64,000 nt of DNA from Desulfobulbaceae bacterium (GTDB taxonomy: Bacteria; Desulfobacterota; Desulfobulbia; Desulfobulbales; SURF-16): contig PKTX01000001.1 in assembly GCA_002868945.1 (NCBI GenBank), positions 18,310-82,309 on the forward strand, read 5' to 3'. The translations under genes were made by a program, and so were the position numbers. Shown one piece after another: positions 4,226 through 61,758 of this stretch; positions within the stretch are counted from its first letter, which is position 1, and every line of letters begins with the position of its first letter. The notes under the pieces were generated by a model. The model did not search any database, was not told where the DNA came from, and saw only the letters and a list, made by a program, of their open reading frames with translations.

Positions 4226-4265
4226 GCCTGCGACACTCCGAAATGTCTCATTATTCAAGATATCC
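4226..4265. repeat. fragment of the intergenic repeat superfamily (right end of an A-type element)
   Basis: GCCTGCGACACTCCGAAATGTCTCATTATTCAAGATATCC matches the module GCCTGCGACACTCCGAG of the copies at 42821 and 58230, and the A-type terminus CTCATTATTCAAGA of the copies at 16285 and 53951. Confidence 0.6.
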
Positions 4266-4406
4266 TTATATCGCAATGTAATCATGAGGAAAACCAATTC
4301 CCTTAATTCTTGACAATAAAGAGAGGCCCATTGTAGTAGATTTCACACGACGTTGATGCAATGCTCTCCCTCTTCTCTCCACTCATTCTACCCTGGAAAA
4401 GCAACC

Positions 4407-5237
4407 ATGGACTTTTTTTCCCTGCACGAAGATATAAAGCGTTTTTTTCAAGAGGATCTTGGTAGTGGCGATGTTACCTCACAGGCCATCTTTGCTCCGG
4501 AGGATATGGGCCAGGCCACCTTTCGAGCCAAAGACGCTTTTATCTGCGCAGGCATGCAGATTGCCGCTGAGGTCTTCAAGTGTCGGATCGGCGCACTCTC
4601 CTACCAGGCCGTTGCCGACGGTTTGCGCGTCGAACCGGGTCAGGAGGTTTTTTCCTGCAGAGGACCGGTGCTTGAACTTCTCCAGGCCGAACGGGTCGCC
4701 TTGAATATTGTCCAGCGTCTCTGCGGTATCGCCACTTTGACGCACCATTTTGTCCGGCAGGTTGCCGATCTGCCGGTGCGCATTACGGATACCCGGAAAA
4801 CAACGCCGGGATTACGTATGCTGGAAAAATATGCCGTGCGGGTGGGCGGCGGTCATAATCATCGCCTTAATCTGGCCGACGGCGTTATGATCAAAGACAA
4901 CCACATTGCGGCCTGCGGCTCCATTGCGGCGGCCGTGGAGCGTGTTCGTCAATTTGCCCCTCATACCTTGAAGATTGAGGTGGAGACGGAGACCCTGGCC
5001 CAGGTTAAGGAGTGTCTGGCTGCCCGGGTGGATATCATTATGCTCGACAATATGAGCATTGCCGCCATGACAGAGGCGGTGCAATATATCGCCGGCCAGG
5101 CCCTGGTGGAGGCCTCGGGCGGGGTAACCCTCGAGAATGTAAGGCAAGTGGCCGAGACAGGTGTTGATATTATCTCCATCGGTGCCCTCACCCACTCCGC
5201 GCCGGCATCTGACATTAGTATGGAGTTAACCACCTAA
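4407..5237 (+). CDS. nadC: nicotinate-nucleotide (quinolinate) phosphoribosyltransferase
   Basis: Full-length NadC-like sequence (TDTRKTTPGLR, IMLDNM, EASGGV). Start moved to ATG 4407 (MDFFSL...). The 18 upstream codons from a TTG have no support. Confidence 0.9.
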   Translation: MDFFSLHEDIKRFFQEDLGSGDVTSQAIFAPEDMGQATFRAKDAFICAGMQIAAEVFKCRIGALSYQAVADGLRVEPGQEVFSCRGPVLELLQAERVALNIVQRLCGIATLTHHFVRQVADLPVRITDTRKTTPGLRMLEKYAVRVGGGHNHRLNLADGVMIKDNHIAACGSIAAAVERVRQFAPHTLKIEVETETLAQVKECLAARVDIIMLDNMSIAAMTEAVQYIAGQALVEASGGVTLENVRQVAETGVDIISIGALTHSAPASDISMELTT

Positions 5238-5441
5238 ATACCAGGGGTGGTGGTGGCCATGTTTTTTGCCTGTGAGCCTTAAAAAAAACCGTAATATCGA
5301 AAAAATTCAAAAGATAAAAGTTTTGATATTTTAGATATTTATAATACAATATGAGCGATTATATCGGTAAAGGAGAGGGCTTTAGCCGATTTACCTTTTA
5401 CTTTCACTTTACATGGCAACTCTCAAAAAAGAGGTAAGTAT

Positions 5442-7415
5442 ATGAAATCACGATTTTTCACGATTGTGACGCCGCTGATGATACTCATTTTTTGTGTGCT
5501 GAGCGCCTCTGCGGCAATCGGTGCCACAGCGCCAGTTTACAATGCAGCGGAATTAACCAATAGTTTAAAAACAGGAGCTTACCTGCAGAAAACCGATAAT
5601 CTCATGATCATTGTCGACGGCCAGGGTGAAACCTTTCTGGGGGTCGGCCAGACGCAGAACCAAAAGATAGCCAGATATCTCGTTGCCAATATCGGCAAAA
5701 CCATTCCCAATATTCCCCATCGTCGTATGCTGCGCGTTTTCGGACCCAAGGCGGCCAGCTTTGAAAAAGATTTTTCAACCATCTTTGGCCTCTACCATAT
5801 CAATGCCACAGGTTTTAGGCCGATTATTGCCACCAAGACCCACGCCATCAGCGACTTTGATCCCTTGGGCATGACCTTTCTCTCCGCCTCCAATGAACTG
5901 GCGAAACTGAGTGGTACCCACGCCATTATTCTGATCAGTAACGGTGTACATATCCCCAAGTCGGCCATCCATGAAGCGGCCTACCTGAAAAAGAAGTTTG
6001 GCGGTTCAGTGTGCTACTATCCCATCCTTACCGGTAATGATCCTGAAGGCGCCAAAAAGATGAACGCCATTGCCAAGGTGGGCGGCTGTGGTTTCATGGC
6101 CAGATATGACGAGGTGGATTCCCCGTCGGAACTGACCAACTACATTGAAAAGATCTTTTTCAGCAAGCGGCGGCTGCCTGCCCCTGTTGTGGAACCAGAG
6201 CCGTTACCCGTGCAGGAACCCCTTGAACCAGAGCCTGTGGTTGTTGAGGAAGAGGTGATCGAGGAGGTTGTCGAGGAACCGGTGGTGCAGGAGGATGAGG
6301 TTATTATCCTGGAACGGCAACTGCCCCATGACAAGGTGGTGACCATTGAACTGCATGTTGAATTCGACCTTGACAAGGCCACCCTGCGGCCGGGTTATGA
6401 GGAAGAAATAAATCAGGTTGCCGATTTTATGCTGCGCTACCCGGAAACAGAGGCGCTTCTTGAGGGGCACACCTGTAATCTCGGCTCAGAGGCGTACAAC
6501 AAGGATCTCTCCAGCCGACGGGCCCAAACCGTGAAAAAGTATCTGGTGGACACCTTCGCCATTGATCCGGCGCGTATCAAGACCCGTGGTGCCGGCGAAA
6601 ATGAGCCCATTGCCGACAACTCCACCGAAGAAGGCCGCATGAAGAATCGGCGGGTGGTGGCTGTCATCTCCACCATTGTCACCGACTATGTCACGGTGGA
6701 GCAGGAGGTTCTCAAGTCTGATTTTCTCAGTGATGACTTTGTCATGCCGCCTGTGGAAGAGGAGATTGATGAAATGCTCCTGGAGCAGGACGATATGCAG
6801 GATAGCCAACAGTACCCTGCCCCGGATGAAGGCGACGCTCAACAGCCTGTGGAAGATGAGGCTGCATCGGTGCCTTCCGCGGACGAGCAAGAAGAGGCCG
6901 CTACTGAGGCAGCTGCCGAGGAGGGGGCGGCTGAGGGAGATGAGGACTTCTCTCTTTATCTGCAGGAACCGGTGCAGCAAGAAGATACAGTTGAGGCGAG
7001 CGGCGATGAGCTTGACGAGGATGCTGCTCCGGCCACCTCCGCCGCAGAGGAAAGCGATACGATGACGGCGCCGGTAACTGCACCTGAAACAGAAGAACAG
7101 CGCTCATCGGTTGATATGCAACAACCGGATCTGCCGGATAGTGAAGCGGCCCCGCCAGAGTTGGCGGAGGATGCCGAAATTGATGCCATCTTTGAAGAAA
7201 GTGCCGCAGAGTCTCAAGAAGAACCGGTGGAGAGTGTCGCTAACGAGACAGAAGAGGCCGAGGTAACAAGTGAAGCGCCCATTGCAGAGGATGTTGTGGT
7301 TGTTTCGCCGGGTGAAAGCGCCTTTGACGAGGAGAAAGCCCCCCTGCAGGTTGAGCCTGTGGAGGAAGAAGAGTCGAAAAAAGAGGTGGGAAGTGAAGGG
7401 GACTCCATGCTCTAA
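5442..7415 (+). CDS. OmpA-family peptidoglycan-binding protein with an N-terminal vWA-like region and a long polyacidic C-terminal tail
   Basis: Signal peptide MKSRFFTIVTPLMILIFCVLSASAAIGA. OmpA_C core at about aa 300-410 (GHTCNLGSEAYNKDLSSRRAQTVKKYL...NRRVV). An E/P/V-rich linker precedes it and a ~240-aa D/E/A/P-rich tail follows it. Confidence 0.8.
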   Translation: MKSRFFTIVTPLMILIFCVLSASAAIGATAPVYNAAELTNSLKTGAYLQKTDNLMIIVDGQGETFLGVGQTQNQKIARYLVANIGKTIPNIPHRRMLRVFGPKAASFEKDFSTIFGLYHINATGFRPIIATKTHAISDFDPLGMTFLSASNELAKLSGTHAIILISNGVHIPKSAIHEAAYLKKKFGGSVCYYPILTGNDPEGAKKMNAIAKVGGCGFMARYDEVDSPSELTNYIEKIFFSKRRLPAPVVEPEPLPVQEPLEPEPVVVEEEVIEEVVEEPVVQEDEVIILERQLPHDKVVTIELHVEFDLDKATLRPGYEEEINQVADFMLRYPETEALLEGHTCNLGSEAYNKDLSSRRAQTVKKYLVDTFAIDPARIKTRGAGENEPIADNSTEEGRMKNRRVVAVISTIVTDYVTVEQEVLKSDFLSDDFVMPPVEEEIDEMLLEQDDMQDSQQYPAPDEGDAQQPVEDEAASVPSADEQEEAATEAAAEEGAAEGDEDFSLYLQEPVQQEDTVEASGDELDEDAAPATSAAEESDTMTAPVTAPETEEQRSSVDMQQPDLPDSEAAPPELAEDAEIDAIFEESAAESQEEPVESVANETEEAEVTSEAPIAEDVVVVSPGESAFDEEKAPLQVEPVEEEESKKEVGSEGDSML

Positions 7416-7476
7416 CGGAGTCATCTTTCGGCAGTGCCTTAAAGGCGCATTGTCTATGTGGTGTTTCCCTGGTTCA

Positions 7477-7526
7477 GGCAACAAAAAAGGCTTTCCGTTA
7501 AAAAACGGAAAGCCTTTTTTGTTGCC
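7477..7526. terminator. bidirectional intrinsic terminator between convergent genes
   Basis: Perfect 23-bp stem GGCAACAAAAAAGGCTTTCCGTT / AACGGAAAGCCTTTTTTGTTGCC with an AAAA loop. The arms contain A/T runs in both orientations. It lies between the stops at 7415 (+) and 7548 (-). Confidence 0.8.
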
Positions 7527-7547
7527 TGTTTGCCTGGCAAGCCGCCC

Positions 7548-9098
7548 TCAGCCGGCGCCGATCTCGTCGACAATGGCCTGGACCATGGCCGGGATGGTGT
7601 AGGTCTCGGGTTGAACGTGGACCGCAAGGCCGTACTCACGGACCGTTTGACCGGTTATGGGACCAATGGCGGCGATCATGACCCCGTCAAGGAGCTCTTG
7701 TAAGGCCCTGTTGTCTTTGCAGTCCAGCATGTCGACAAAATTGCGCACCGTGGAGGAGCTGGTAAAGGTCACCATGTCAATCTTTTCAGCTTTGAGTTCC
7801 TCACGCAATTGCTGCCCCTCGGAGAGGGGCGGCACATTCTGGTAGACCGGGGCAATGGTTACGGTGGCACCGGCCTCGGCCAGGCCATTCTCCAGGACCT
7901 TACGGGCCTTCATGGCGCGGGGGATGAGGACCTTCTTGCCCGTGACGTCTGTCTTGCTCAGTGCTGCAACAAGGCCTTCACCGGTATATTCTGCCGGCAA
8001 CAGATCCGCCCGCAGACCATACTGCAGCAGGCAATCAGCCGTAACCCGTCCCACGGCGGCAATCTTGACACCGTGCAGCTTGCGGCAATCGTGGCCCTGT
8101 TCCTGGAGGCGCTTGAAAAAGGCATGAATGGCATTGATGGAGGTGAAAACCAGCCAGTCAAAAGTCGCCAGTTGCGCAATGGCTTGGTCTGTTTGCTGCC
8201 ACGAATCAGGTGGCTCAATGGAGATGGTGGCATGCTCCAGGCATGAGGCGCCGTTTTCCTCAAGCAGGGAAACAAGTTCACTGGCCTGTTCCCTGGTCCG
8301 GGTTACCACGATTCGTTTGCCGAACAGCGGCCGGAGCTCGTACCAGTTCAACTGGTCGCGATAGCGCACCACATCACCGACAATGGTGAGGGCCGGCGGT
8401 TTGATCCCCTGCTTGCTGACGATGTCGGCGATATTCTCCAGGGTGCCCACCACTGACTGCTGGTACGGCAGGGAGGCCCAGCGCACCACAGCCACCGGCG
8501 TTTGCGGATCACGGCCATGCTTGATGAGGTTGGCGGTGATGGAGGGCAGGTTTTTAATGCCCATGTAAAAGACCAGGGTGCCGACGCCGGTGGAGATCTT
8601 GTCCCAGGCAATGCGGCTTTCCGTCTTGTTGGGGTCTTCATGGCCGGTGATAAAGGCCACGGACGAGGTACATTGACGGTGGGTAATGGGCACACCGGCA
8701 AAGGTGGCGGCCGCGGAGGCAGAGGTCACACCGGGCACTGCCTCAAAATCCTGGCCGGCCTTGACCAGCTCCTCAAGCTCCTCGCCGCCGCGCCCGAAGA
8801 TAAAGGGGTCGCCGCCCTTGAGGCGCACCACCAGTTTACCGGCGCGAACCCTGTCCACCAACATCTGGTTGATCTCTTCCTGGGTATGGGTATGCTTGAC
8901 GCCACCCTTTTTCCCGGCATAGATGAATTCCGCATCCTTCGGAACATAGGAGAGCAGTTTCTTGCCGGCCAGGTAGTCATAGATAATAACCTCTGCCTTT
9001 TGCAGCAGTTCGCGGCCGCGCACGGTGATCAATCCCGGATCGCCGGGACCGGCGCCGATGAGATACGCCTTTCCTTTTTTATCTTTATGAGTTGTCAC
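7548..9098 (-). CDS. cobA: uroporphyrinogen-III C-methyltransferase fused to uroporphyrinogen-III synthase
   Basis: N-terminal tetrapyrrole methylase (GAGPGDPGLITVRG, GGDPFIFGRGGEE) followed by a ~250-aa HemD-like half. This fusion is typical of sulfate reducers. Confidence 0.9.
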   Translation of the reverse strand: MTTHKDKKGKAYLIGAGPGDPGLITVRGRELLQKAEVIIYDYLAGKKLLSYVPKDAEFIYAGKKGGVKHTHTQEEINQMLVDRVRAGKLVVRLKGGDPFIFGRGGEELEELVKAGQDFEAVPGVTSASAAATFAGVPITHRQCTSSVAFITGHEDPNKTESRIAWDKISTGVGTLVFYMGIKNLPSITANLIKHGRDPQTPVAVVRWASLPYQQSVVGTLENIADIVSKQGIKPPALTIVGDVVRYRDQLNWYELRPLFGKRIVVTRTREQASELVSLLEENGASCLEHATISIEPPDSWQQTDQAIAQLATFDWLVFTSINAIHAFFKRLQEQGHDCRKLHGVKIAAVGRVTADCLLQYGLRADLLPAEYTGEGLVAALSKTDVTGKKVLIPRAMKARKVLENGLAEAGATVTIAPVYQNVPPLSEGQQLREELKAEKIDMVTFTSSSTVRNFVDMLDCKDNRALQELLDGVMIAAIGPITGQTVREYGLAVHVQPETYTIPAMVQAIVDEIGAG

Positions 9099-9144
9099 GA
9101 TGAATTCGTATGTAAAATTTTATAAATAGTAGCAAGCCGCTGTT

Positions 9145-12384: not shown

Positions 12385-12420
12385 CTGAACCTTGAACCTT
12401 GAACCTTGAACCTTGAACCT
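12385..12420. repeat. heptanucleotide microsatellite (CTTGAAC)x4-5
   Basis: The sequence reads CTGAAC CTTGAAC CTTGAAC CTTGAAC CTTGAAC CT. It is preceded by the 9-bp duplication CAGGAGCAA CAGGAGCAA at 12349-12366. Confidence 0.9.
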
Positions 12421-16271: not shown

Positions 16272-16284
16272 CTCTCAGCCCTCA

Positions 16285-16376
16285 GGGGATCATTGAATAA
16301 TGAGTTTTATTTTCTATGCTTCTCAAACTCGAACAGGGAAGCGAAACTTCGAGATATCTCATTATTCAAGATGGCC
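16285..16376. mobile_element. A-type MITE-like element, short copy (A1)
   Basis: Termini GGGGATCATTGAATAATGAG and CTCATTATTCAAGATGGCC are inverted repeats. The core is TTTTATTTTCTATGCTTCTCAAACTCGAAC. Confidence 0.8.
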
Positions 16377-21582: not shown

Positions 21583-21600
21583 AAGAGTCCCTTGTCTCTA

Positions 21601-21698
21601 GGCCATCTTGAATAATTGCTTTTTTGTCCGATATGCTGCTGTTTTTATTTTCTATGCTTCTCAAACTCGAACAAAAAATCTAATAATTGAAGATACCC
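21601..21698. mobile_element. A-type MITE-like element (A2)
   Basis: GGCCATCTTGAATAATTGC...TTTTATTTTCTATGCTTCTCAAACTCGAAC...TAATAATTGAAGATACCC. It is flanked by TA on both sides (CTCTA| and |TCTAG) and fills the ilvB-ilvN spacer. Confidence 0.8.
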
Positions 21699-28902: not shown

Positions 28903-28920
28903 GGGTATCTTGAATAATTT
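28903..28920. repeat. solo A-type terminus
   Basis: GGGTATCTTGAATAATTT matches the A-type terminal repeat. No partner end is seen nearby. Confidence 0.5.
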
Positions 28921-28994
28921 AACTTTTTGCATTGAGACGAATTATTCGTCATCAATAGCCATGCCACTATAAAAAATCGTGCGCCATGGGTAAC

Positions 28995-29648: not shown

Positions 29649-30512
29649 TCAAGGCAAGATACCCGGTCGTTCAGAAAGATCAAGAAAAACTTTTGAAAAA
29701 CCCAAACTCCTCATTTTTTTTTGAATATTATTCCTTACTTCCGACACCAAAAACTTGTCAAGGTCACCCTCCTTGACTGTCAGGTGCAGAGTCTGGTCAA
29801 CAGGTGTGGCCCGCATTCCGGTAAGGCCGAGACCATGCAGGGCGTCTTCCGCTGCTTCAACCGTGTGCAACAGCTCTGCGGTGATGGGCCGGCCCCGTGG
29901 AATGCGGGTGGCAAGACAGGAATCACTCGGTCTGTCCCAGGTGGCGAGCCCCAGGGCCTTGCTCAGGGCCCGGATCTCTTGTTTGCCGATATGACAGTGA
30001 AGGTAGGGCGTGTCCACGGCCAGCTCCGCAAGGGCCCTGAAACCGGGACGGCTGGCGTGGTCGTCATCCATATTGGTGCCGTCGACAAGCAGCCATGCTT
30101 GGCCCAGCTCCTGGGAGAGATCCTGATATATGGCTGACTTGCAGAGATAGCAGCGTTCCGCGCCATTGTCTGAAAATCCGGCCACCGCAAAGGGCCGGTG
30201 TCTTCCTTCAACAAGATTCAGATCGTGCTCAGTGGCGAATTGCCGGGCAAAGACAGCCTGTTGCCGGGCGATCAGCACACTGTTGACGAAAACGCCGCGA
30301 CAGTGTGCCTTGCCGAGAAATCGACTGCCGAGATAAAAAAGCAGCGAACTGTCTACTCCTCCTGAAAAAGCCACCGCCACCTGTTGCCTGGCGGTAAACC
30401 ACTGCTGCAGGGCCTCATAGGCTCTCTGAAGATGGACGGGGAGCGGCAAGGTTATTTGTCCGGTATCTGATGCACGGGTTTTGCAAGCAGAAAATCGCCC
30501 TTCTCGATCCAT
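29649..30512 (-). CDS. LarE-like PP-loop ATP-dependent sulfur transferase (TIGR00268-type)
   Basis: PP-loop AFSGGVDSS, CYLC, and a PSDSCLATRIP motif equivalent to the LarE sulfur-carrying Cys. The ATG at 30512 overlaps the upstream gene by 61 nt. An in-frame TTG at 30449 would start 3 nt after that gene's stop. Confidence 0.65.
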   Translation of the reverse strand: MDREGRFSACKTRASDTGQITLPLPVHLQRAYEALQQWFTARQQVAVAFSGGVDSSLLFYLGSRFLGKAHCRGVFVNSVLIARQQAVFARQFATEHDLNLVEGRHRPFAVAGFSDNGAERCYLCKSAIYQDLSQELGQAWLLVDGTNMDDDHASRPGFRALAELAVDTPYLHCHIGKQEIRALSKALGLATWDRPSDSCLATRIPRGRPITAELLHTVEAAEDALHGLGLTGMRATPVDQTLHLTVKEGDLDKFLVSEVRNNIQKKMRSLGFSKVFLDLSERPGILP

Positions 30513-31627
30513 TCTTTGAGGATGCGGGCGATTTCCCTGGCCTTGACAATGCTGGAGAGAGGCGCGGTTCTTACCTTCTGGCCATTCACCTCGATTTCAC
30601 CGGTGTTGAGCTGGGCGTACGACACTTCACCATAGTTGCGCGCCACCTGATGGGAATAGTCGTAGGAGTAATCGACCACCTGGGTGACCAGGTCATCGTT
30701 GGAAACACCGGTATAGGCGGCCATCTCTTCGTTAAGGATGGGAATGGGTATGCCGACGCCCACAGCCAGGGTCGTGCCGTAGCCCTGCATGGAAATTCCC
30801 TTGAGCCACTTGTCAGACATCTGTTTCATGTCGCCCTGCAGCATAAGGGTACCGGCCGGTTTTTTGGGCGTGTCGTTGTCCAGGCGCGGTACTGCCGGGT
30901 TGTGTTGCGTGCCCTGCCAGGAGACGTAGCCGATACCGCCGCCCAGGAAGATACGGGTGCCCATGCCGATGGTCTTATAGAGGGGATCATTAAAAAGAGG
31001 GCTGAGTTCACCGGCGCTGCAATAGTTGGCGTTTTTACCCTTGGGCAGCAGGGTGCCCATGTAGGTATAGATGGTCTTGTCGGACAGATTGATGGCGCAA
31101 TTATAATTCTGATAACAGTTGCGGGGGTTGAGCAGCATGGCATAAGGCAGGTCAGCCAGGGTGACCTCTTTTTCAAATTCCGTGGCCGGATAGCAGTCCG
31201 TGCCATAACCGATGGCTCGCATCTTCACCTTTTTGCCGGCCACCAGATCCTCAATGACGTGGCCGCCGCCATAGCGGAAGCTGCCGGTAAAAACCTTGTT
31301 CAGGGGGTCATCCTCGGCCACTTCGGCAGCACCGAAGTAGACATCAACGGCGGCCAGACCGGCGTACGCCATGACATTGTTGAACCATACCCGGGAGGCC
31401 TTGATGGTGGGGTTGGAATGACCGAAATTAATGATTGCTCCGGAAGAACACATGGGGGAGAAGGTGCCGGTGGTAACGACATCCACCTTGCGGGCCGCCT
31501 CTTCGGCGCCGTGCTCCTTAACAATACCCACCATCTCCTCGGCCGTTACCACAACCGCCTCACCGGCCTTGATGCGGGCATTGATCTCTTCGTATGTCTT
31601 TTCAACCTTAAATTTTTTTTCAGTCAT
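30452..31627 (-). CDS. DUF39/COG1900 homocysteine biosynthesis protein (MA1821 family)
   Basis: N-terminus KTYEEINARIKAGEAVVVTAEEM...VDVVTTGTFSPMCSSGA, with length typical of DUF39. Confidence 0.75.
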   Translation of the reverse strand: MTEKKFKVEKTYEEINARIKAGEAVVVTAEEMVGIVKEHGAEEAARKVDVVTTGTFSPMCSSGAIINFGHSNPTIKASRVWFNNVMAYAGLAAVDVYFGAAEVAEDDPLNKVFTGSFRYGGGHVIEDLVAGKKVKMRAIGYGTDCYPATEFEKEVTLADLPYAMLLNPRNCYQNYNCAINLSDKTIYTYMGTLLPKGKNANYCSAGELSPLFNDPLYKTIGMGTRIFLGGGIGYVSWQGTQHNPAVPRLDNDTPKKPAGTLMLQGDMKQMSDKWLKGISMQGYGTTLAVGVGIPIPILNEEMAAYTGVSNDDLVTQVVDYSYDYSHQVARNYGEVSYAQLNTGEIEVNGQKVRTAPLSSIVKAREIARILKEWIEKGDFLLAKPVHQIPDK

Positions 31628-31800
31628 TCTTGTAATCCTTACGTATCAGCTTAACTTCCAGGTTTGCTTAACAAATCGAAATTTCATCTTCAGGGGGGAA
31701 AGTTGCAGGCATCAGAGGATCAAATAGTCGCAGAGTGTCACTCTTTTGCCCTTACCCCGTGCGTCTCACTGTGCACCTGTAAAAAACAGCAACGAACTTG

Positions 31801-31820
31801 AGGGTATCTTGATTATAACG
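31801..31820. repeat. degenerate solo A-type terminus
   Basis: AGGGTATCTTGATTATAACG versus the consensus GGGTATCTTGAATAAT. Confidence 0.4.
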
Positions 31821-32974: not shown

Positions 32975-33075
32975 GGCCATCTTGCAAGACATGGCTTCAC
33001 AAACAACGGCGGCGCCTATTTTTTGCAGTTGGTGAAACTCGAAGGAAATGACCTGTTTCTGAATAGGCATTCACT
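32975..33075. repeat. degenerate chimeric A/C-type repeat copy
   Basis: GGCCATCTTGCAAGAC at the left end. GAAATGACCTGTTTCTGAATAGGCATTCACT at the right end resembles the complement of the C-type terminus AGTGTCTGTCCAGAAATAGGTCATTTC. Confidence 0.45.
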
Positions 33076-35473: not shown

Positions 35474-35659
35474 GGCCGTCTTGAATAATTGCTGTTTCGG
35501 AGCCTCGCAGGCTTGCTTACCCGGTCGATTTTTTCGTCGCCACAAAAACATCCTCACATATTCTCGACATGCCGAGGATTATTTTTTGGACATGACAAGG
35601 TAAGCGAGTTCGCGAGGCTTCGGGAGATCGGCTGAAAGGGCCATTTCGGAACAGACACT
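35474..35659. mobile_element. chimeric MITE-like element: A-type left end, C-type right end
   Basis: Left end GGCCGTCTTGAATAATTGC and right end GGCCATTTCGGAACAGACACT. Internal inverted modules are TTTCGGAGCCTCGCAGGCTTGCTTACC and GGTAAGCGAGTTCGCGAGGCTTCGGGA. Confidence 0.75.
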
Positions 35660-35863
35660 AGTTACCCTACCCATGCCAAAAAAACAACAGCGGCCCCTAT
35701 TATTTCCATCTGGGCCGGGTGGTCTCCAGGCTTGTCGGAATACAGGGCCGGCACAACGGATTTTTGAGCTTTTCTACTGTTTTCCGATGCCTGAGTTCTG
35801 AATTCTCCTGGAATCATAAATATCTCATTATTCACGATAGCCTCTGTGCAAAAAAAGAAAAAT

Positions 35864-37129: not shown

Positions 37130-37272
37130 AGTGTCTGTCCAGAAATAGGTCATTTCGTTCGAGATCAAGGACTGCGAGAAAAATAAGCGCAGGCATATAT
37201 CTGATATTCCGAGCATTATTTTTTGAGCATGACGCCGAGATCGGATGAAAGGGCCATTTCTGGACAGGCACT
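37130..37272. mobile_element. C-type MITE-like element, complete copy (C1)
   Basis: Terminal inverted repeats AGTGTCTGTCCAGAAATAG and (complement) AGTGCCTGTCCAGAAATGG match 17/19. The element is flanked by the direct repeat AAAT (37126-37129 and 37273-37276). Confidence 0.85.
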
Positions 37273-40515: not shown

Positions 40516-41178
40516 ATGCCGCAACACGTAAGTTCAGCCCACAGCGGCGACCGAATCACCGTCTTTCAGCAGAATGGCGCCGCCGCCAATAAGATCCGGG
40601 GCATCTTAGAGTATGGCCGGGGGATCAGCATTGTTGAGGTGCTTGATTTTCCAACCAACCTGCCGGAATTCATCGACGATCCGGCCCCCTACTTTCCAGA
40701 ACGGATTCAAGGCAATATCGTTCTCAGTTTCCTCAAGCATCCGGACCTGGCCGACTTTGCCGGCCACTACTGCCGTAGACAAGGCGTGGTCATGGTGGCC
40801 AGTGGGCCCCGCAAGATTGCCGGGGCCCGCTCGCCCTTTACCTGCTGTGGCCTGGCTGAACATGCCGAGCTGGGCAGCTACGGTCGACAGTTCGGCATCC
40901 CCAGATACCGGGTCACCCTGAAAGATAAGCGGATCAAGGCCTTGACGGTCGAGCGTGGCGCCTCATGTGGCGCCACCTGGATGGCCCTGTCACGGCTGCT
41001 GGGCTGTACCCCTGACGAGGCCCTGGAAAAGGTGGCCCGGGAGGTGCAGTTTCACTGCCAGGCCGATCCGGCCGCTTTTGACCCGATCAGCGGCCACAGC
41101 CCCCTCCACTTTGCCGGCAACACCCATTACAAGGCCCTGGAAAAGGCCCTGCGCAAGGCCGCTTCAACCATGTCTTGA
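40516..41178 (+). CDS. DUF166 (COG1810)-like Cys-rich protein
   Basis: The PFTCCGL, RGASCGATW and FHCQADP cysteine pattern and the ~220-aa length recall DUF166. The call is from memory. Confidence 0.5.
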   Translation: MPQHVSSAHSGDRITVFQQNGAAANKIRGILEYGRGISIVEVLDFPTNLPEFIDDPAPYFPERIQGNIVLSFLKHPDLADFAGHYCRRQGVVMVASGPRKIAGARSPFTCCGLAEHAELGSYGRQFGIPRYRVTLKDKRIKALTVERGASCGATWMALSRLLGCTPDEALEKVAREVQFHCQADPAAFDPISGHSPLHFAGNTHYKALEKALRKAASTMS

Positions 41179-41186
41179 CCGGAAAC

Positions 41187-41409
41187 AGGTTGTTTCGGAG
41201 TCTCACAGGCTTACATGCCTTTTCGAGATAAAAGCGGGCAAAAAAATAAGCACGCCCTGAAAGAAACGCCCTTGGCGTACAGGCATCTCTTCTCCATTCC
41301 GAGCATTATTTTTTGAGTATGACGAGAAAAGCGAGCTCGCCAGACTTCGGGAGATCTGCCCGGTAAGCGAGTTTACGAGACTCCGAGAGGCGCATTTCCG
41401 GACAGGCAC
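41187..41409. mobile_element. C-type-related MITE-like element (C2)
   Basis: It shares TTTCGGAGTCTCACAGGCTTAC, CCGAGCATTATTTTTTGAGTATGAC, GGTAAGCGAGTTTACGAGACTCCGAG and the terminus GCATTTCCGGACAGGCAC with the copies at 35474 and 37130. It fills the DUF166-murA convergent spacer. Confidence 0.75.
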
Positions 41410-41420
41410 CTGGTAACCCT

Positions 41421-42820: not shown

Positions 42821-43035
42821 CAGCCCGTTGAAAAAGGGAGCGAGCGAAGCTGAGGCTAGGAAAAATGAGGCGAAAAAATGCGCGCCCGCAGGAGGTAAGG
42901 GGGCCTGCGACACTCCGAGTACCCCTGGCGTGCAGTTTACATGGGGTTTAGGAGCATTTCGGAGTCTCGCAGGCTTGCTTACCTGAGCGAATTTTGACGA
43001 CGCAGCAGCAAACGCAGTAGTTTTTCAAAGGGCTG
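42821..43035. mobile_element. D-type MITE-like element, complete copy (D1)
   Basis: Terminal inverted repeats CAGCCCGTTGAAAAA and (complement) CAGCCCTTTGAAAAA. Flanked by the direct repeat GTAA (42817-42820 and 43036-43039). Confidence 0.85.
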
Positions 43036-46948: not shown

Positions 46949-47448
46949 AATAGTTCTTCTTTGTGCCCCGGAAAACAGGGAATGAGGTTAGCGGATAAAG
47001 GTATATACAGACAGTTTCCGATCTACAACCAGGGGCATTGTCACAGCCCGGCAATAGAGGTTTAATGCGAGAGAGTGTTATGTGGAGGTCAAGAAAAGAA
47101 AAAAAGGGGTGAATACCCTCTTGAAACGTATATTAAAGAGCCGTTAGAAAATTAAAGCAGATATGGCTCCCCGTTCGCAAGGGGTTTTCACAAAGTATAA
47201 AATGCCTGGCAGTGGGGAGCGAAAACATCAGGATGAGTCAAGATGTTCAATACCTATAGCGGGGCCATTTTGCCCTGTCAAGGTATTTTTAATGGATTAA
47301 GTGGGTTAGCCGCCCTACTGAAAAAAGAACTCCCCCTGTTGTTGCCCCTGTCTGCCTGTATTAGCCCGGCAAGGTCGGAGGCAGGACAGGGAAATCCTCC
47401 CGGCCGCCGGCAAACTGCCTGACCACAGAAAATATGCGCGGATCTTGC

Positions 47449-47612
47449 CAGCCCGTTGAAAACCTACTGCGCTCGAAGGTCTCTCTTCGTTCGCTATCTA
47501 CTGATGCGTCCTCAAAATTCGGCTCAAAATGCTCATTTACCCATGTAAACTGCGCTTTTTCGCCTCATTTTTCCTGGCCTCAGCTACGCTCGCTACGTTT
47601 TTCAACGGTCTG
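47449..47612. mobile_element. D-type MITE-like element, short copy in opposite orientation (D2)
   Basis: Terminal inverted repeats CAGCCCGTTGAAAAC and (complement) CAGACCGTTGAAAAAC. The interior aligns with D1 and D3 minus two internal modules. The flanks TTGC/TTCC are imperfect. Confidence 0.8.
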
Positions 47613-49223: not shown

Positions 49224-49470
49224 ATACAGGAGGGAGTCATGAGCCGACAGCGGCGTAGGGGAATTCAGGAAAGAGGAGCGCTATGGGGCTATATATTCCG
49301 CGGATCACGTCACGGAGGATTAACAGTGCAGAGGCTTATACCTGTTGCCGGTCCCACAAAAAAAGAGCCTGGCCTGATTGAGGCGGGGCTCTTTTTTGTG
49401 GCAATCGAGAACAGGCGAGGCGGTGAACCGCCTACAGGTCAAGATGGCGCCTTTTATTGGGGCTGGATCA

Positions 49471-53487: not shown

Positions 53488-53622
53488 GGTAAGCGCATCC
53501 TTCTACTGATGGATGAAAAGGCAGGGGCCTGCGCCGGCAAATGTCAAGGGAGGGCCGCTCTCCTCGAAGTCAGATGAGCTGCCGCAAAGAAAGCGGCTGA
53601 CAGGACCATTTACGGCCAGGCA

Positions 53623-53934
53623 CTACTTGGCGACCTGAACGTAACGCATCTTCAGGTCGTAGATGAATTTCTCCAGAATATTTTTTTCCTCATCCGTGAG
53701 ATTGCCCTTTGTCTTGGCCAGTAAGAGATCCAGGGTGTCGATGGTATGTTTGGCCAGCACCAGATCTTGCGCGGTCTGACCGGTGGCCGGATCAGGGATC
53801 TCGCCCAGATGAAAAAGCGCCGAGGTGTTTAACGACATGATAAAGGCGGTAAAGGTCACCTCCGGCATAACGCATTTCCCGTCCTTAAGCACCCCGCCGG
53901 CACAGCGGCATTTTTCCTCATCCATGTCTTGCAC
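53623..53934 (-). CDS. DUF1844 domain protein
   Basis: TFTAFIMSLNTSALFHLGEIPDP...AKHTIDTLDLLLAKTKGNL is typical of DUF1844. The call is from memory. Confidence 0.6.
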   Translation of the reverse strand: MQDMDEEKCRCAGGVLKDGKCVMPEVTFTAFIMSLNTSALFHLGEIPDPATGQTAQDLVLAKHTIDTLDLLLAKTKGNLTDEEKNILEKFIYDLKMRYVQVAK

Positions 53935-53950
53935 CTTTTCCCTTTTTTAT

Positions 53951-54141
53951 GGCCATCTTGAATAATTGCTCTTGTGCCCGATTTTTCGACGCTCCGAAAA
54001 CAAAAAAACCTCACATATGCCCGAGATGCTGCACCCCGGGACACTTTCTTTCAGGGCGCGCTTTTATTTTCTATGCTTCACAAACTCAACCAGAAAAGCG
54101 AGTCTGTCAGACTCCGAAATATCTCATTATTCAAGAGACCC
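53951..54141. mobile_element. A-type MITE-like element, long copy (A3)
   Basis: Terminal inverted repeats GGCCATCTTGAATAATTGC and (complement) GGGTCTCTTGAATAATGAG, with TA next to both ends. It contains the TTTTATTTTCTATGCTTCACAAACTCAAC core plus a module shared with the 35474 copy. It occupies essentially the whole spacer and abuts the serA stop codon. Confidence 0.85.
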
Positions 54142-55730: not shown

Positions 55731-56093
55731 GATATCTCCTTAATGTACATTATATATAGTATGTCGCCCCTTCAGGGCCTTATGATCTTGCCATGTCCCT
55801 GTCTGCCGGGTCGTCCAACGCATTCGCCAACCATGTGGATATGCCGGGGGTACGCTGCCGAGGCCGGGGATCAGGTCGTGTTCCGAGGAATAATCTCACC
55901 GTGCTGAGCGAGCGACATGCAACCGTCACGACATGATCATATGGCTGATAACAGGGAGAAACGGCAATATGCTGCGCCGCTCCTGGTTTGTCAAGCACAT
56001 TTCAGACTGGTTTTGCCGCAAAAAAAGGGCGGCGGCGCAGGCTGTGGCGACCTGGCAGCGCCGGATTTTACCCGGCAGATCCGCACAGGTCTG

Positions 56094-56564
56094 CTAATCG
56101 CGAAAACAGGCTGAAAAGTCGGCCGGCCCCTCATCGTCATCCATATCGTGTTCAACCATGTCGAGTCCTTGGCGCACCTTGAGCTCCTGCTTGACCATCT
56201 CCACCTTCTGTTGCACCAGATTGTCGGCAAATACCGGATTGGCCACATAGTTCATGGAGTTTCTGTTCAGGGTTGCCACCAGTTCAGCAATAACCTCATC
56301 CTTGAGCCGGTCATCAACAAAATGGCGCTCTTTGGCAAATTCATGGACCAGGACACCGTTAAAACGCTGTCGAAAGGCCTCCAGTTCCGGGCCGTGCAGG
56401 CCCGCAGCGCCCAGCCTGTCATCGGCAACCGGCAGTTCCAGGCGGCAGAGGATCTTAATATACCAACGATCTGCCGCCACCTGTTTGCCCAGGTCAAAGA
56501 TGGATACGGTGATGCCGTTATCCAGGGTCCGTGATTCAATCAGTTTTTCGCTATAGTCTTTCAT
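56094..56564 (-). CDS. hypothetical protein with acidic C-terminus
   Basis: 156-aa ORF with coding-like composition. No motif recognised. Confidence 0.45.
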   Translation of the reverse strand: MKDYSEKLIESRTLDNGITVSIFDLGKQVAADRWYIKILCRLELPVADDRLGAAGLHGPELEAFRQRFNGVLVHEFAKERHFVDDRLKDEVIAELVATLNRNSMNYVANPVFADNLVQQKVEMVKQELKVRQGLDMVEHDMDDDEGPADFSACFRD

Positions 56565-56652
56565 CTTTCTATGCTATGGTTGCTTCATTTTTTTGAAGCG
56601 GGTATATTGGCCGACTCTTGTTCCGGAAACTCTTCTTTCTAGTCACTCAATC

Positions 56653-58119: not shown

Positions 58120-58229
58120 GCAAAGATGTGACGAATGACCAACACCGCATCTTGCGGCCATCTACAGGGTGAACACATCGCTTTTGAATATGCCGCAACC
58201 GGCGGTACTGCTGATCAGTTGCCCTTTAG

Positions 58230-58635
58230 CACCCCGTTGAAAAACGTAGCGGGCGCAGCTGAGGCAAGGAAAAATGAGGCGAAAAATGCGCGCCCGCAGG
58301 AGGTAAGGGAGCCTGCGACACTCCGAGTACCTTTGGGGTGCAGTTTCCATGTGGTTCAGGCGCATTTCGGAGTCTCGCTCCGCTCGCTTAGCTCAAGCCG
58401 AATTTTAACGACGCATCAGCAGGTAGCGAACGACGAGAGACCTTGGCGCCTAGGAGCCTGCCGGACTTAGACATAAATCTACTGCAAATTCGAAAAATCG
58501 GCCCATATCCCCATGGCTTTTCGTTAAATAGCTCTGCTATTCGCCTCAAATCCATGTAAATCTGGCCTTGATTTTTCGAAATTTCGCTACGATTCTCTAA
58601 GTCCGACAGGCTCCTCGTGGTTTTTCAACTGGCTG
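58230..58635. mobile_element. D-type MITE-like element carrying a nested insertion (D3)
   Basis: Terminal inverted repeats CACCCCGTTGAAAAAC and (complement) CAGCCAGTTGAAAAACC. Flanked by the direct repeat TTAG (58226-58229 and 58636-58639). The interior is collinear with D1 except for the 164-bp insert at 58452-58615. Confidence 0.85.
58452..58615. mobile_element. E-type MITE-like element nested inside D3
   Basis: 20-bp terminal inverted repeats AGGAGCCTGCCGGACTTAGA and (complement) AGGAGCCTGTCGGACTTAGA match 19/20. There is an internal palindrome around TTCGAAAAATC. This is the only copy I saw in the window. Confidence 0.8.
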
Positions 58636-58689
58636 TTAGACATTTCCGGACAGTTACCAAAAGATGGCCCTGCAAGGGACCAATTACCC

Positions 58690-58718
58690 TTGACAAACCA
58701 GCCCCAGCTTGCTAAATA
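58690..58718 (+). promoter_or_regulatory. sigma70-like promoter for tRNA-Gln(CUG)
   Basis: TTGACA, 17-nt spacer, TAAATA. It ends 19 nt upstream of the tRNA 5' end. Confidence 0.6.
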
Positions 58719-58737
58719 AGGCATCTCGACATCGTGC

Positions 58738-58811
58738 TGGGAGATCGTCTAATGGTAGGACTGCAGACTCTGACTCTGCCTATCGGGGTTCGAATCCCTG
58801 TCTCCCAGCCA
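58738..58811 (+). tRNA. tRNA-Gln (anticodon CUG)
   Basis: Manual cloverleaf: TGGGAGA acceptor, anticodon arm GCAGA-CTCTGAC-TCTGC, T arm CGGGGTTCGAATCCCTG, and an encoded CCA. Confidence 0.9.
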
Positions 58812-58920
58812 CTTCTCTTTTTCAAAGACTCCTATTTACAAATTCCCCCGCACTGACCCAAACAGCGTCCTCCAGGTGAGCTACACGGCTGTCCAGATGC
58901 TGTTGGCAGCTTGTCACTGC

Positions 58921-59493
58921 TCAGGCGCTGACATCCACGAGGCTGCCGCCCAGCTCCGAGATTTTGGCATCAATCAACTCCAGCGTCCTCTCCAGGGTCT
59001 GAGAGCTGATTTCAGGGAGCTTACCGCCCCAAATCTCTTCCGCCTCCTGAAAGCCCTTGAGGACCCCCTCCCGACCGGCCTGCAAGCGGTCAAGATCATC
59101 ACCAGCGCCGCTCAGGACAAAGTCGGCGATACGCTGCGCCGTCTTGCTGACGCCGAAATGACCATCTTCGTCAATCAACCGGCTCGCCTCGTCCGGGCTC
59201 AATTCAACCAGGGGCGTGCCGTTATACTCCATTGCCTCCAGGTCAAGACCTGTTGTCTCTCCCGATTGGCCAAGGGCGGCCTGCGTCTGCAGAGTGGTGC
59301 TACTCTCTTTCTTAACCACGAGTAGAAACTCAACCAGGTTGGCCTGCATGGCCAGCCGTCCATCAACAGGCCTCGTTGTTTCGTTCTGCCGCACCCCCTT
59401 TTTGCCGGGGGCAGCCTCTTTTGCCATTTTATCCTGGAGAGGTCTCAAGGCCTGCTTCTGAAGATCTGCTTTGCCGATATCCGTCATAACCAT
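58921..59493 (-). CDS. hypothetical protein (C-terminal half resembles DUF5610-type domain)
   Basis: 190-aa ORF. The segment GHFGVSKTAQRIADFVLSGAG...GVLKGFQEAEEIWGGKLPEIS recalls DUF5610 from memory only. Confidence 0.45.
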   Translation of the reverse strand: MVMTDIGKADLQKQALRPLQDKMAKEAAPGKKGVRQNETTRPVDGRLAMQANLVEFLLVVKKESSTTLQTQAALGQSGETTGLDLEAMEYNGTPLVELSPDEASRLIDEDGHFGVSKTAQRIADFVLSGAGDDLDRLQAGREGVLKGFQEAEEIWGGKLPEISSQTLERTLELIDAKISELGGSLVDVSA

Positions 59494-59863
59494 TTCCCCC
59501 TGCGAAAATTTTATAAAACCCCTATGCCTTCTTCATACTATAAGAACAAAAAGGGCCATGGGAAATAAAATGACCACTTTTGCTTCGGCAACCAGCAGGA
59601 GAAGCTGCCACAAAGGACCTCCCCGCTATTTTGCTGTTGCCCCATGCCGCCTGGCCACGATACACTTATTTTTTGACACCTTAACCTTGTCAACCTCTTT
59701 TTATGGTGCTGTACAGGAGTGATGGTTGTCTTGCCGATGCAGAGCCAGGCGCAGCAGTTGCCATAGTGCCGCGCTCTTGATCCCTTACCTCAAGGCAGCG
59801 GCGGCGGCCACGGCCAATGAGGTCGGCCAACCACGACAATCTTTCAGATCAGGAGCTGGAGAA

Positions 59864-60874
59864 ATGAAGGAAGCCCTTTTTTATTCAAAAGCCGAAGAGA
59901 ACAAGGTCGTATGTGGCCTGTGCAACCATCATTGCCACATCAGTCCCGGCAAACGGGGGATATGCGGTGTGCGGGAGAACCGGGACGGCACCCTCTATAG
60001 CCTGGTTTACGGCCGGCTTATTTCCGGCAACAGTGATCCCATAGAAAAGAAACCGCTCTTTCACGTGCTGCCCGGCTCCAAAAGCTACTCCATTGCCACG
60101 GTGGGCTGCAACTTCAGGTGTCGGCACTGCCAGAACTATGAGATATCGCAATATCCGCATCTCCATAACAATGAGATAATCGGCAGCACCAGGAGCCCGG
60201 CCCAGGTGGTGGAGGCGGCCCTGGCGGCCGACTGCGCCACAATCAGCTACACCTATGTGGAGCCCACTATTTTTTATGAGTTTGCCTACGATTGTGCACT
60301 GCTGGCCCATGAGCACGATCTGAAAAACGTCTTTGTCAGCAACGGTTATATGGCGCCGGAGGTCAGTCGTCATATTGCCCCGCTTCTCGACGCCATTAAT
60401 ATCGACATCAAGGCCTTTACCGACGATTTCTACAAGAAGATCTGTTCGGCCCGACTGCAGCCCGTTCTGGACAATGTGCGTCTCATGCATGAGCTGGGAG
60501 TGTGGCTTGAGACCACCACCCTGCTTATTCCGGGCCTCAACGATTCCGACCGGGAATTACAGGATCTGGCCCGCTTCATTAAAAGTGTTGATTCGAACAT
60601 ACCCTGGCATGTCACCGCCTTTTATCCCACCTATAAACTGACCGATCGCCCCCCCACGCCGGTGGAAACCCTGCGCCGGGCCCGGCAGATCGGCCTTGAC
60701 GAGGGGCTTCGTCATGTCTATGAGGGTAATATCCCCGGTGAAGGCGGCGAAAACACCTATTGCCCCACGTGCGGCGCCGAACTGATCAGTCGTTTTGGTA
60801 TGCATACCAGGGCCAACCACCTGACTGGCGGCTGCTGCAACAAATGTCGGGAGACCATCAAGGGTATCTGGTAA
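59864..60874 (+). CDS. AmmeMemoRadiSam-system radical SAM enzyme
   Basis: N-terminal Cys-rich CGLCNHHCHISPGKRGICGVRE, radical SAM CNFRCRHCQN, and C-terminal CPTCG...CCNKC. AGGAG RBS before ATG 59864. Confidence 0.8.
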   Translation: MKEALFYSKAEENKVVCGLCNHHCHISPGKRGICGVRENRDGTLYSLVYGRLISGNSDPIEKKPLFHVLPGSKSYSIATVGCNFRCRHCQNYEISQYPHLHNNEIIGSTRSPAQVVEAALAADCATISYTYVEPTIFYEFAYDCALLAHEHDLKNVFVSNGYMAPEVSRHIAPLLDAINIDIKAFTDDFYKKICSARLQPVLDNVRLMHELGVWLETTTLLIPGLNDSDRELQDLARFIKSVDSNIPWHVTAFYPTYKLTDRPPTPVETLRRARQIGLDEGLRHVYEGNIPGEGGENTYCPTCGAELISRFGMHTRANHLTGGCCNKCRETIKGIW

Positions 60875-60885
60875 CAGCCCCATGG

Positions 60886-61010
60886 CAGCCCGTTGAAAAA
60901 CTACGGCGCTCGAAGGTCTCTCTGCATTTGCTATCTGGTCATCCGTTATCTCAATTCGGCTGCGGGGCGCGCATTTTTCCTTGCGCAAGCGGCACTCGCT
61001 CCCTACTGCC
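60886..61010. repeat. truncated/degenerate D-type copy (D4)
   Basis: CAGCCCGTTGAAAAACTACGGCGCTCGAAGGTCTCTCT aligns with the D2 left end. No matching right terminus is found. Confidence 0.6.
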
Positions 61011-61175
61011 AGCCTTCGCCCGCCCGCCACTCTCCCCGCGCCAAGGCGGTTCCCTGTCCGGAAGCAGGCACCTCTATTGACGAATCGTCTCGTCATGCTT
61101 ACAGTGGCGCTTTATCAAGATACGGCGCAGGAGGTCGCACTCCCCGTCAACAATGCGCAAAACAAGGAGCAAACC

Positions 61176-61577
61176 GTGAAGAGTATTCGGTATATCAGCG
61201 CCGCATTTACCGGCGGAGCATTGGCAGCCCTGCTGGATAGTTTTAATATCTGGGCCATGGGCAAGGTGGGCATTTCAGATTTTCTCGGTATCACCATGAA
61301 GCCTCAGTTTACCGCGCCTTGGCTCTATGAACGAATGATCTGGGGCGGTATCTGGATGCTTTTACTGCTGTTGCCCATCATGCGCAGCCGGACCATCTTA
61401 CGGGGCATGCTCTTCAGCCTTTTGCCCTCTGCCATGATGCTCTTCATGGTGCTGCCCACCATGGGCAAGGGCATGTTGGGCCTTGGTTTCGGTAATTTGA
61501 TGCCCTTTGTGGTGGTACTCCTCAACTTTATTTACGGTATTTTTGCCTCATATTGGTATAGCCTGGCTAAGAGATAG
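61176..61577 (+). CDS. small integral membrane protein (hypothetical)
   Basis: GTG start preceded by AAGGAG. About 4 hydrophobic helices. The upstream part of the ORF-track entry runs through repeat D4 and was discarded. Confidence 0.5.
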   Translation: MKSIRYISAAFTGGALAALLDSFNIWAMGKVGISDFLGITMKPQFTAPWLYERMIWGGIWMLLLLLPIMRSRTILRGMLFSLLPSAMMLFMVLPTMGKGMLGLGFGNLMPFVVVLLNFIYGIFASYWYSLAKR

Positions 61578-61664
61578 CACCCCCGACAGGTTTGACAAAA
61601 AATATTGGCTTTTCTTGTCTTTGGGCGCCGGGCGGGCAAGAACAGTATCTGTTCGGGAAAAAGA

Positions 61665-61758
61665 CATTTCAGAGTCTCGCCGCCTCCCCTTATTTGTTCG
61701 AGATCAAGGAGTGCGAGAAATATAAGCACTATCCTGTATCTAGCCATTCCTGATATCC
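61665..61758. repeat. fragment of a C-type-related repeat
   Basis: CATTTCAGAGTCTCGCC...TTGTTCGAGATCAAGGAGTGCGAGAAATATAAGCAC aligns with the interior of C1 (TTCGTTCGAGATCAAGGACTGCGAGAAAAATAAGCGC). Confidence 0.6.

Follow-up and report, generated by a model that had tools for sequence, protein, structure and literature searches.

The 64-kb stretch of the Desulfobulbaceae contig PKTX01000001.1 analysed here (the window) is, by gene calling and Pfam searches, an ordinary housekeeping region. The housekeeping genes called include hemD/cysG, a leuA-like gene, ilvBN, xseA, pheA, moaA, tsaD, murA, prmC, prfA, rho, coaE, serA and cysS, and three tRNAs are present. The 10.3 kb of non-coding DNA between genes is dotted with short repeats, described in a first-pass annotation as a mosaic superfamily of mobile elements. 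We conclude that these repeats are very probably bacterial miniature inverted-repeat transposable elements (MITEs), that is, short non-coding derivatives of transposons that are moved in trans by a DDE transposase encoded elsewhere. A census using a library of copies from the window, its relatives and metagenomes assigned about 2.3 kb to elements, a share of 3.6% for the whole window and 22.5% for its non-coding DNA, close to the roughly 2 kb first estimated. At least 13 copies in the 64 kb are solid, and the elements range from 56 to 406 bp in length. As first claimed, every real match lies in a spacer; one copy alone, C2, reaches into a gene, by 14 nt. Open reading frames (ORFs) that cross the elements are either spurious or without a Pfam match, so the repeats have no coding capacity. 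Dense populations of MITEs and repetitive extragenic palindromic (REP) sequences are well known in other bacteria, and the density here, initially called unusual, is high but within the range of such genomes, so that the description was overstated.

The modules that make up the repeats recur in the spacers far above chance for all four termini and modules searched. The A terminus GGCCATCTTGAATAAT has seven matches in the window with up to two mismatches (0.03 expected), the D terminus seven (0.04 expected) and the C terminus four (0.03 expected), and a 27-mer hairpin arm, TTTCGGAGYCTCGCAGGCTTGCTTACC, has two exact matches where none is expected. Repeat finding and self-BLAST recovered the remaining modules, including which copies share which: a 30-mer is common to 16305, 21643 and 54062, CCGAGCATTATTTTTTGAG is present at 35553, 37190 and 41280, and a 97-nt block beginning GAGGCGAAAAA occurs at 42874 and 58282 with 92% identity. 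Family A elements have the ends GGCCATCTTGAATAAT and ATTATTCAAGATGGCC, family C elements AGTGYCTGTCCGGAAAT and ATTTCCGGACAGRCACT, and family D elements CAGCCCGTTGAAAAAC and GTTTTTCAACGGGCTG; terminal inverted repeats of 16–17 nt are found in A, C, D and a further palindromic element, E. The A, C and D termini have the loose pattern GCC...TTGAA/GGAA.A in common. Inside A, C and D elements there is also a hairpin-arm module, B (GGTAAGCGAG...CTCCGAGA and its complement), in zero to three copies and in either order. Moreover, the interior of the C element C1 matches the A elements of loci L005 and L006 at 72–74% over 87–109 nt, and a metagenomic element (L073) carries C termini around an A-type interior. 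Judged by their sequences, the A, C and D families are related to one another, and the mosaic appears to arise from a shared core with optional B arms, overlaid by nested, abutting and chimeric insertions. ‘Mosaic superfamily’ is thus a fair description, because the families are related, B arms occur in all three and one copy is a chimera (35474–35660). We also considered the B arms, which start with GTAAGCG, as the ends of IS66-type MITEs, and rejected this because their order around the core varies, each may be present or absent independently, and they have no duplications of their own.

The elements are mobile: they insert precisely, with 4-bp target duplications, and are polymorphic between closely related genomes. 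MurA homologues led to syntenic contigs of relatives, among them L007, which has about 91% nucleotide identity to the window. D1 (215 bp, 42821–43035; termini CAGCCCGTTGAAAAAG and GTTTTTCAAAGGGCTG, with a B hairpin inside) separates the prmC stop from the murA start; its site is empty in L007, where the prmC–murA spacer measures 156 bp as opposed to 376 bp in the window. Comparison of the empty site, CCTTTGCCC, with the filled site on the same strand, CCTTTAC[D1]TTACCCC, identifies TTAC (GTAA on the plus strand) as the duplicated 4 bp. The sites of D2 and C2 are likewise empty in L007; at the latter, the murA and DUF166 stop codons lie 5 bp apart rather than the 242 bp seen in the window. Conversely, two elements of L007 occupy sites that are empty in the window: one is a C element of 202 bp between rho and rpmE, with the flanks AACG/AACG, and the other an A element of 168 bp with the flanks TAAA/TAAA. 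The tsaD–DUF2062 spacer contains a C element in both genomes (37130–37272 in the window and L007:13621-13716), and these are independent insertions because they have opposite orientations and sites 4 bp apart (TAACTA in L007 and TATTTA in the window). This double hit suggests a strong target preference for TANNTA. In an RNA contig from another relative, 53953 is connected to 54142 by 35 unrelated nucleotides, and A3 is therefore absent from the orthologous spacer of that relative. More distant relatives (L009–L012, about 70–77% identity) have no elements in the region compared. Variation between relatives, which the first-pass annotation had proposed as a check, therefore runs in both directions.

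Duplications are found beyond the D1 site. Within the window, they flank D1 (GTAA), D3 (TTAG), C1 (AAAT) and A2 (TCTA), and A elements of other genomes have ATAA, ATAA and TTAA; all A and D duplications are TA-containing tetramers. Among the metagenomic C MITEs with both flanks available, 51 of 67 have a perfect duplication in the pattern T-ANNT-A, when about four copies would be expected to match by chance at the two variable central positions. Reading the C duplication as 6 bp rather than 4 bp gives the same sequence and the same empty site; at least four positions are duplicated, because one copy has the atypical AACG on both sides.

Candidates for an autonomous partner came from metagenomes. 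A scan with the C terminus returned at least 120 metagenome loci; among those listed are 68 complete C MITEs, together with at least nine 1.79–1.83-kb elements that have the same termini, and there are further C-ended variants of 1.66 and 2.57 kb. Each of the 1.8-kb elements has one ORF of about 485–490 amino acids (aa). Three of these ORFs score 382–419 bits on the NCBIfam model NF033593 (ISNCY family transposase; cut-off 325), and a score of 453 bits is reached by the 446-aa ORF of L082, the 1.66-kb variant. The IS5 and IS1182 models also match all four ORFs, more weakly; in Pfam, DDE_Tnp_1 matches weakly and is absent for L132, and DUF772 matches L082 only. These insertion sequences (ISs) begin with AGTGYCTGTCCGGAAAT, end with its complement and are flanked by AGTT/AGTT, AGGT/AGGT and AGCT/AGCT, so that the flank pattern T-ANNT-A is common to the C-type ISs and the C MITEs. 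On the evidence of termini, flanks and profile matches, C-type ends are shown to belong to a predicted ISNCY/IS5-like DDE transposon with the same target duplication. The ISNCY-type family comprises 3,922 metagenomic proteins at E ≤ 1e-20, named, where names are given, as ISNCY or IS5 family. The same 17-nt ends are found in at least three transposase clades that are mutually 25–60% identical, and one C-terminus clade co-occurs with most C MITEs in one metagenome project. The ISDol1 subgroup of ISNCY has lengths of 1.6–1.9 kb and 6–7-bp repeats; the literature that we found only names ISDol1.

For family A, the terminus agrees at 12 of 16 positions with the end of IS903 (IS5 family), which we confirmed on plasmid records; IS903 duplications are 9 bp, not 4 bp. 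Four seemingly A-bounded elements of 1118 bp in viral contigs (L162, L166, L171 and L175), with an exact A 16-mer and a weak inverted match, were rejected as A-type ISs because all four are a single phage segment, identical in its flanks, that carries no transposase. A further viral-contig case, of 1137 bp, was likewise rejected as a partner, since its 303-aa ORF is not transposase-like.

The modules also recur far beyond the window. The source metagenome is X1, a bioreactor run that contains 98% of the window's sampled words. Against a single-copy depth of about 15, element depth in X1, summed over contigs aligned at ≥85%, is about 11,000 over the C1 left arm, 2,200 over D1 and 1,350–1,490 over the A termini, or roughly 90 to 700 times the single-copy depth. 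The X1 contigs stop at element ends, and the depth of many junction contigs is about 15, as for the genome itself. Joints in X1 show that abutting elements 4–5 nt apart occur elsewhere in the genome, as they do in the window at 58635/58641. The high copy number asked about in the first-pass annotation is thus seen in the source metagenome.

Outside X1, the 20-nt A left end has six matches in genome collections. Complete A elements are present in Desulfogranum japonicum and in metagenome-assembled genomes (MAGs) of Desulfocapsaceae, Desulfobulbus and Desulfobulbaceae (four other Desulfobulbales lineages); a match in a Marinamargulisbacteria MAG comprises the 20-mer only, with no second A terminus, and was set aside. 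Scans of viral contigs with the A and D 16-mers gave mostly chance matches and one true D MITE, with the duplication TTAT, and blastn of A3 and D1 against 72,556 plasmids gave no match. The lengths of the C MITEs make up a ladder, with rungs at 143, 174, 208, 239, 268, 298, 330 and 360 bp (metagenome loci L013–L132; for example, L094:855-1214 and L083:2642-2880). Its steps are tandem hairpin cassettes of about 31 nt with the loops CCGAAGG / CCTTCGG, and two further hairpin inserts, of about 34 and 60 nt, add to the sizes. MurA neighbours named Desulfobulbaceae, together with the bioreactor, salt-lake and microbialite runs, point to an uncultured Desulfobulbales host from a haloalkaline setting.

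Several observations weigh against our conclusion. A1, A3, A4 and D2 have no clean duplication. As first noted, the window has no transposase; gene calls, Pfam and profile searches of it also found no integrase, RAYT or Y1 transposase, and a search aimed at ISNCY-type transposases found none there. Scans of genomes, viral contigs and plasmids found no autonomous element with A or D termini; the search for an IS with matching ends, which had been proposed as a check, succeeded for C, in the 1.8-kb ISNCY-type elements of metagenomes, but not for A and D. The C MITEs resemble these ISs over the terminal 17–29 nt only and are therefore not simple deletion derivatives of those sampled. One C-type IS, L025, had no X1 contig aligned at ≥80% nucleotide identity, and the IS copy that served the source genome, if extant, is thus a different member. 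Finally, the copies per family that the X1 depths suggest, about 90 for A, 150 for D and several hundred for C, sum depth over the whole community and may include other organisms; extrapolation from the window density of at least 13 copies per 64 kb gives figures of the same order.

Set against these points, the repeats are short and non-coding, have terminal inverted repeats, make duplications at sites that are empty in a close relative and are dispersed in many copies, all of which define MITEs. The proposal that they are mobile DNA has therefore held up. In the mechanism that we envisage, an ISNCY/IS5-like transposase, in the source genome now or recently, would bind the termini and cut and paste the elements, and related transposases with altered end specificity would serve A and D. 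Survival in spacers only would reflect the choice of AT-rich targets, with selection acting against insertions that disrupt genes. Within mRNAs, the elements would fold into long rods, and any effects on neighbouring genes at some loci would be secondary.

Among the A elements, A1 (92 bp, 16285–16376; termini GGGGATCATTGAATAAT and ATTATTCAAGATGGCC) lies between the asd stop and the start of an rsmD-like gene, A2 (98 bp, 21601–21698; flanked by its TCTA direct repeat) is inside the ilvB–ilvN spacer and A3 (191 bp, 53951–54141) separates the serA stop from the DUF1844 start. These three elements end 13, 18 and 16 nt, respectively, before the rsmD-like, ilvN and DUF1844 start codons (gaps 16272–16284, 21583–21600 and 53935–53950), with only the Shine–Dalgarno region in between, and an effect on translation is possible at these positions. 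A one-ended A fragment (4226–4265) in the divergent spacer upstream of nadC consists of a B-arm remnant, GCCTGCGACACTCCGA, followed by the A right terminus, ATTATTCAAGATATCC. Upstream of the tRNA-Pro promoter region, a mini-A (28903–28958) has an A left terminus, a degenerate right terminus and little else; such terminus-only forms also occur in X1. The divergent moaA/tsaD spacer holds the composite A4 (35474–35842). Its first part, 35474–35660, is the chimera noted above, in which the B arms and the shared core lie between a left terminus of type A and a right terminus of type C, and the remainder comprises about 157 bp of non-repeat sequence and then a solo A right terminus (35818–35842). 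RNA contigs show that, in a relative, this site has an A element of about 100 bp that lacks 35549–35817.

Of the C elements, C1 (143 bp, 37130–37272, plus strand; termini AGTGTCTGTCCAGAAAT and ATTTCTGGACAGGCACT), between tsaD and the DUF2062 gene, is collinear with the metagenomic 143-bp class and has its AAAT duplication in a TAAATA site. C2 (246 bp, 41165–41410), in the convergent DUF166/murA spacer, contains two tandem B modules, and its degenerate left terminus holds the DUF166 stop codon (TGA, 41176–41178). The DUF166 protein is 220 aa in the window and 216 aa in L007, and the window frame stops within the C2 end. A C right-end fragment, GAAAGCGGCTGACAGGACCATTTACGGCCAGGCACTA, is found at 53589–53625. 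A solo C terminus, CATTTCCGGACAGTTAC, occupies 58641–58657, 5 nt past the end of D3.

D3 (406 bp, 58230–58635), between cysS and tRNA-Gln, is 87% identical to D1 over 196 nt and carries nested within it the palindromic element E (164 bp, 58452–58615), the termini of which, GGAGCCTGCCGGACTTAGA and TCTAAGTCCGACAGGCTCC, are C-terminus-like. D4 (about 128 bp, 60886 to about 61013) has an exact left terminus and a decayed right terminus. D2 (164 bp, 47449–47612), flanked by TTGC/TTCC, is inverted relative to D1 and lies in the long leader upstream of rho. Adjoining it, 46949–47448 is a non-repetitive spacer of about 500 bp, the rho-proximal 400 bp or so of which fall within a block that is 94% identical in L007; this is probably a long rho leader with D2 inserted at its distal end.

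The remaining copies are degraded. A decayed element at 32975–33065 has a left end that is A-like, GGCCATCTTG, and a right subterminus resembling that of C, GAAATGACCTGTTTCTGAATAGGC. A core fragment without termini (61665–61741) is 82–91% identical to C1 37154–37202, with the B-like TTTCAGAGTCTCGC in front of it. At 31801–31817 there is a doubtful solo A-like terminus, GGGTATCTTGATTATAA, a 16-mer with at least three mismatches and no adjoining element sequence, which the census did not recover. Thus, of the 16 sites in the first-pass annotation, 13 are solid, those at 32975 and 61665 are decayed and that at 31801 is doubtful and was left uncounted. The same listing had missed the C-end fragments at 53589–53625 and 58641–58657, and had set two boundaries too short, starting C2 at 41187 rather than at about 41165 and ending D4 before about 61013.

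The alternative that stands up best is that the elements serve first of all as structured RNAs or as cis-regulatory RNA modules (stabilisers of mRNA, targets of RNases or small RNAs) that are kept for their fold, with mobility as the means of spread. We regard it as improbable, although the elements do fold well. C1 has a predicted folding energy of −65.1 kcal/mol (z −9.8 relative to shuffled sequence) on the plus strand, which is the sense strand of its neighbours, and −44.9 kcal/mol on the other strand; D1 on its sense strand reaches −81.3 kcal/mol (z −5.8). Of 68 C MITEs (metagenome loci, L007 and C1 of the window), 64 fold better on one strand, by a mean of 12.6 kcal/mol, and the more stable strand is the sense strand in 20 of the 26 copies between co-directional genes, counts that give only a hint because C copies are related by descent. 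In a covariation set of 14 elements of the 143-nt C class, representing about five sub-lineages, the consensus rod is paired in 95.9% of cells (24–47% in slid controls), and 15 of 49 rod pairs are changed on both sides, a number reached by none of 500 shuffles. The ‘long imperfect palindromes’ of the first description therefore fold as rods with covariation support. However, there were few master copies, so that the 64 of 68 and the covariation counts rest on roughly five independent lineages, and palindromes can also be maintained at the level of DNA. Within the window itself, only five of eight elements fold more stably on the sense strand, and no consistent strand bias is seen.

The elements are abundant in four salt-lake metatranscriptomes, with a summed depth of 260–1,450 compared with at most 9 for flanking genes, and some copies on RNA contigs lie directly upstream of a ribosome-binding site and ATG; in the window, three A elements stop 13–18 nt short of start codons. 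Yet the ratio of repeat to flank depth is no higher in RNA contigs than in DNA. No element matched Rfam 15, even at E ≤ 1, and the gathering score was reached by three tRNAs only, so that the elements match no described RNA family. Terminator-like sites number 14 in the window, compared with 14.5 expected in shuffled sequence; two are inside elements, both weak, one of them in the shared core (35560–35579). Promoter-like sites are not enriched in the elements. Variation in presence between close relatives, at housekeeping operons, also argues against an essential role.

An RNA role at some loci is nevertheless possible. A broader version, to which we assign a low probability, is that the superfamily has been co-opted at the RNA level: the rod fold, more stable on one strand and kept by compensatory changes, would be selected in transcripts, and the hairpin cassettes, amplified in steps of about 31 nt, would adjust transcript stability, processing or translation at the housekeeping genes nearby. 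The candidates would then be ilvN, the DUF1844 gene, the rho leader and murA, and the system would be a Desulfobulbales counterpart of Correia and ERIC regulation with a modular, expandable design.

Far less plausible is that the repeats are REP/BIME-like REPINs, spread as mosaic palindrome clusters by a RAYT-type (IS200/IS605-like) tyrosine transposase. The way in which short palindromic arms are combined into a mosaic, with B modules facing either way, would fit this idea, as would the abutting elements, the very high copy number and the confinement to spacers. By contrast, the 4-bp duplications and precise empty sites are clear, and to our knowledge REPINs make no target duplications or such empty sites. 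The repeats have no conserved GTAG-type head (B arms start GGTAAGCG), the window has no RAYT or Y1-transposase gene, and the 16–17-nt inverted termini are shared with ISs that encode a DDE transposase. Membership of the REP/RAYT group fails because target duplications are made and ends are shared with such ISs. Ordinary recurring intergenic signals (intrinsic terminators, or operator and promoter motifs) or metagenome-assembly artefacts are scarcely credible: many copies do lie at gene ends or starts, and the site at 35560–35579 is weakly terminator-like, but the elements are 90–400 bp long with inverted termini and duplications, differ in presence between close relatives, leave the number of terminator-like sites at the shuffled expectation and recur in independent data (two DNA runs, four RNA runs, and ENA, JGI and GTDB genomes).

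The window has other features of its own. At 7475–7528, between convergent genes, an inverted repeat with perfectly matched 25-bp arms around a 4-nt loop (CAGGCAACAAAAAAGGCTTTCCGTT / AACGGAAAGCCTTTTTTGTTGCCTG) has A/T runs on both sides; it is most likely a bidirectional intrinsic terminator unrelated to the MITEs. Another spacer contains an imperfect inverted repeat (49341–49415) with 35-nt arms that are 71% complementary, also with A/T runs. The spacer between the genes for a PALP enzyme and an S13 peptidase holds a perfect tandem heptamer, (TGAACCT)x5, at 12386–12420. Long ORFs overlap on opposite strands at 30452–31627 (minus, 391 aa) and 30470–31654 (plus, 394 aa). Synteny with L009 indicates that the real gene is the HcyBio-domain gene on the minus strand, and the plus-strand ORF has no Pfam match.

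Taken together, our data explain about one-fifth of the non-coding DNA in this region. The literature searched yielded no published description of these families, or of MITEs in Desulfobulbales; the families are undescribed, yet they are an ordinary kind of genome parasite that would not surprise a specialist, and no current idea is overturned. They provide three or four new MITE families, with ends and target sites, for work on Desulfobulbales and on soda-lake and bioreactor metagenomes, in which such repeats break assemblies, as the contig ends at elements show. One family is tied to the poorly characterised ISNCY (IS5-like) group, giving a candidate transposase–substrate pair with the target TANNTA. 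Because the insertions differ between genomes of about 91% identity, they can be used as strain markers, and because they lie inside or beside housekeeping operons, they may change expression.

The repeats resemble several known systems in part, among them Correia, RUP and ERIC elements in size, copy number and co-transcription. Like ERIC/IRU of enterobacteria and RUP of pneumococci, they are co-transcribed imperfect palindromes (about 100–130 bp in those systems) with orientation-dependent RNA folding, but they differ in sequence, termini, duplications (TA for RUP) and host lineage; for RUP, mobilisation in trans by a transposase of the IS630 type has been proposed. With REP, BIME and REPIN sequences they have in common high-copy palindromic mosaics and clustered units in spacers, whereas target duplications, long inverted termini shared with DDE ISs and a window without a RAYT gene set them apart. 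The variable number of a short internal module in BOX of Streptococcus pneumoniae (boxA-boxB(n)-boxC) is comparable to the C ladder and the two B modules of C2, although the sequences are unrelated and BOX is not known to have a signature of terminal repeats and duplication. The Correia element (NEMIS) of Neisseria is also 100–160 bp with terminal inverted repeats, intergenic, co-transcribed and hairpin-forming, and present in around a hundred or more copies that make up a few percent of the genome. Correia elements have a TA duplication, an IHF site and outward promoters, and no known transposase; the repeats of the window have no sequence similarity to them, duplicate 4 bp and include one family for which there is a candidate transposase. 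ISs of the IS5 superfamily/ISNCY share with the repeats the 17-nt C terminus and the T-ANNT-A duplication, and the end of IS903 agrees with the A terminus at 12 of 16 positions. Although only the terminal 17–29 nt are common to the C MITEs and these ISs, and A and D are without a partner in our scans, the small size, the lack of an ORF and mobilisation in trans fit the standard model of MITEs.

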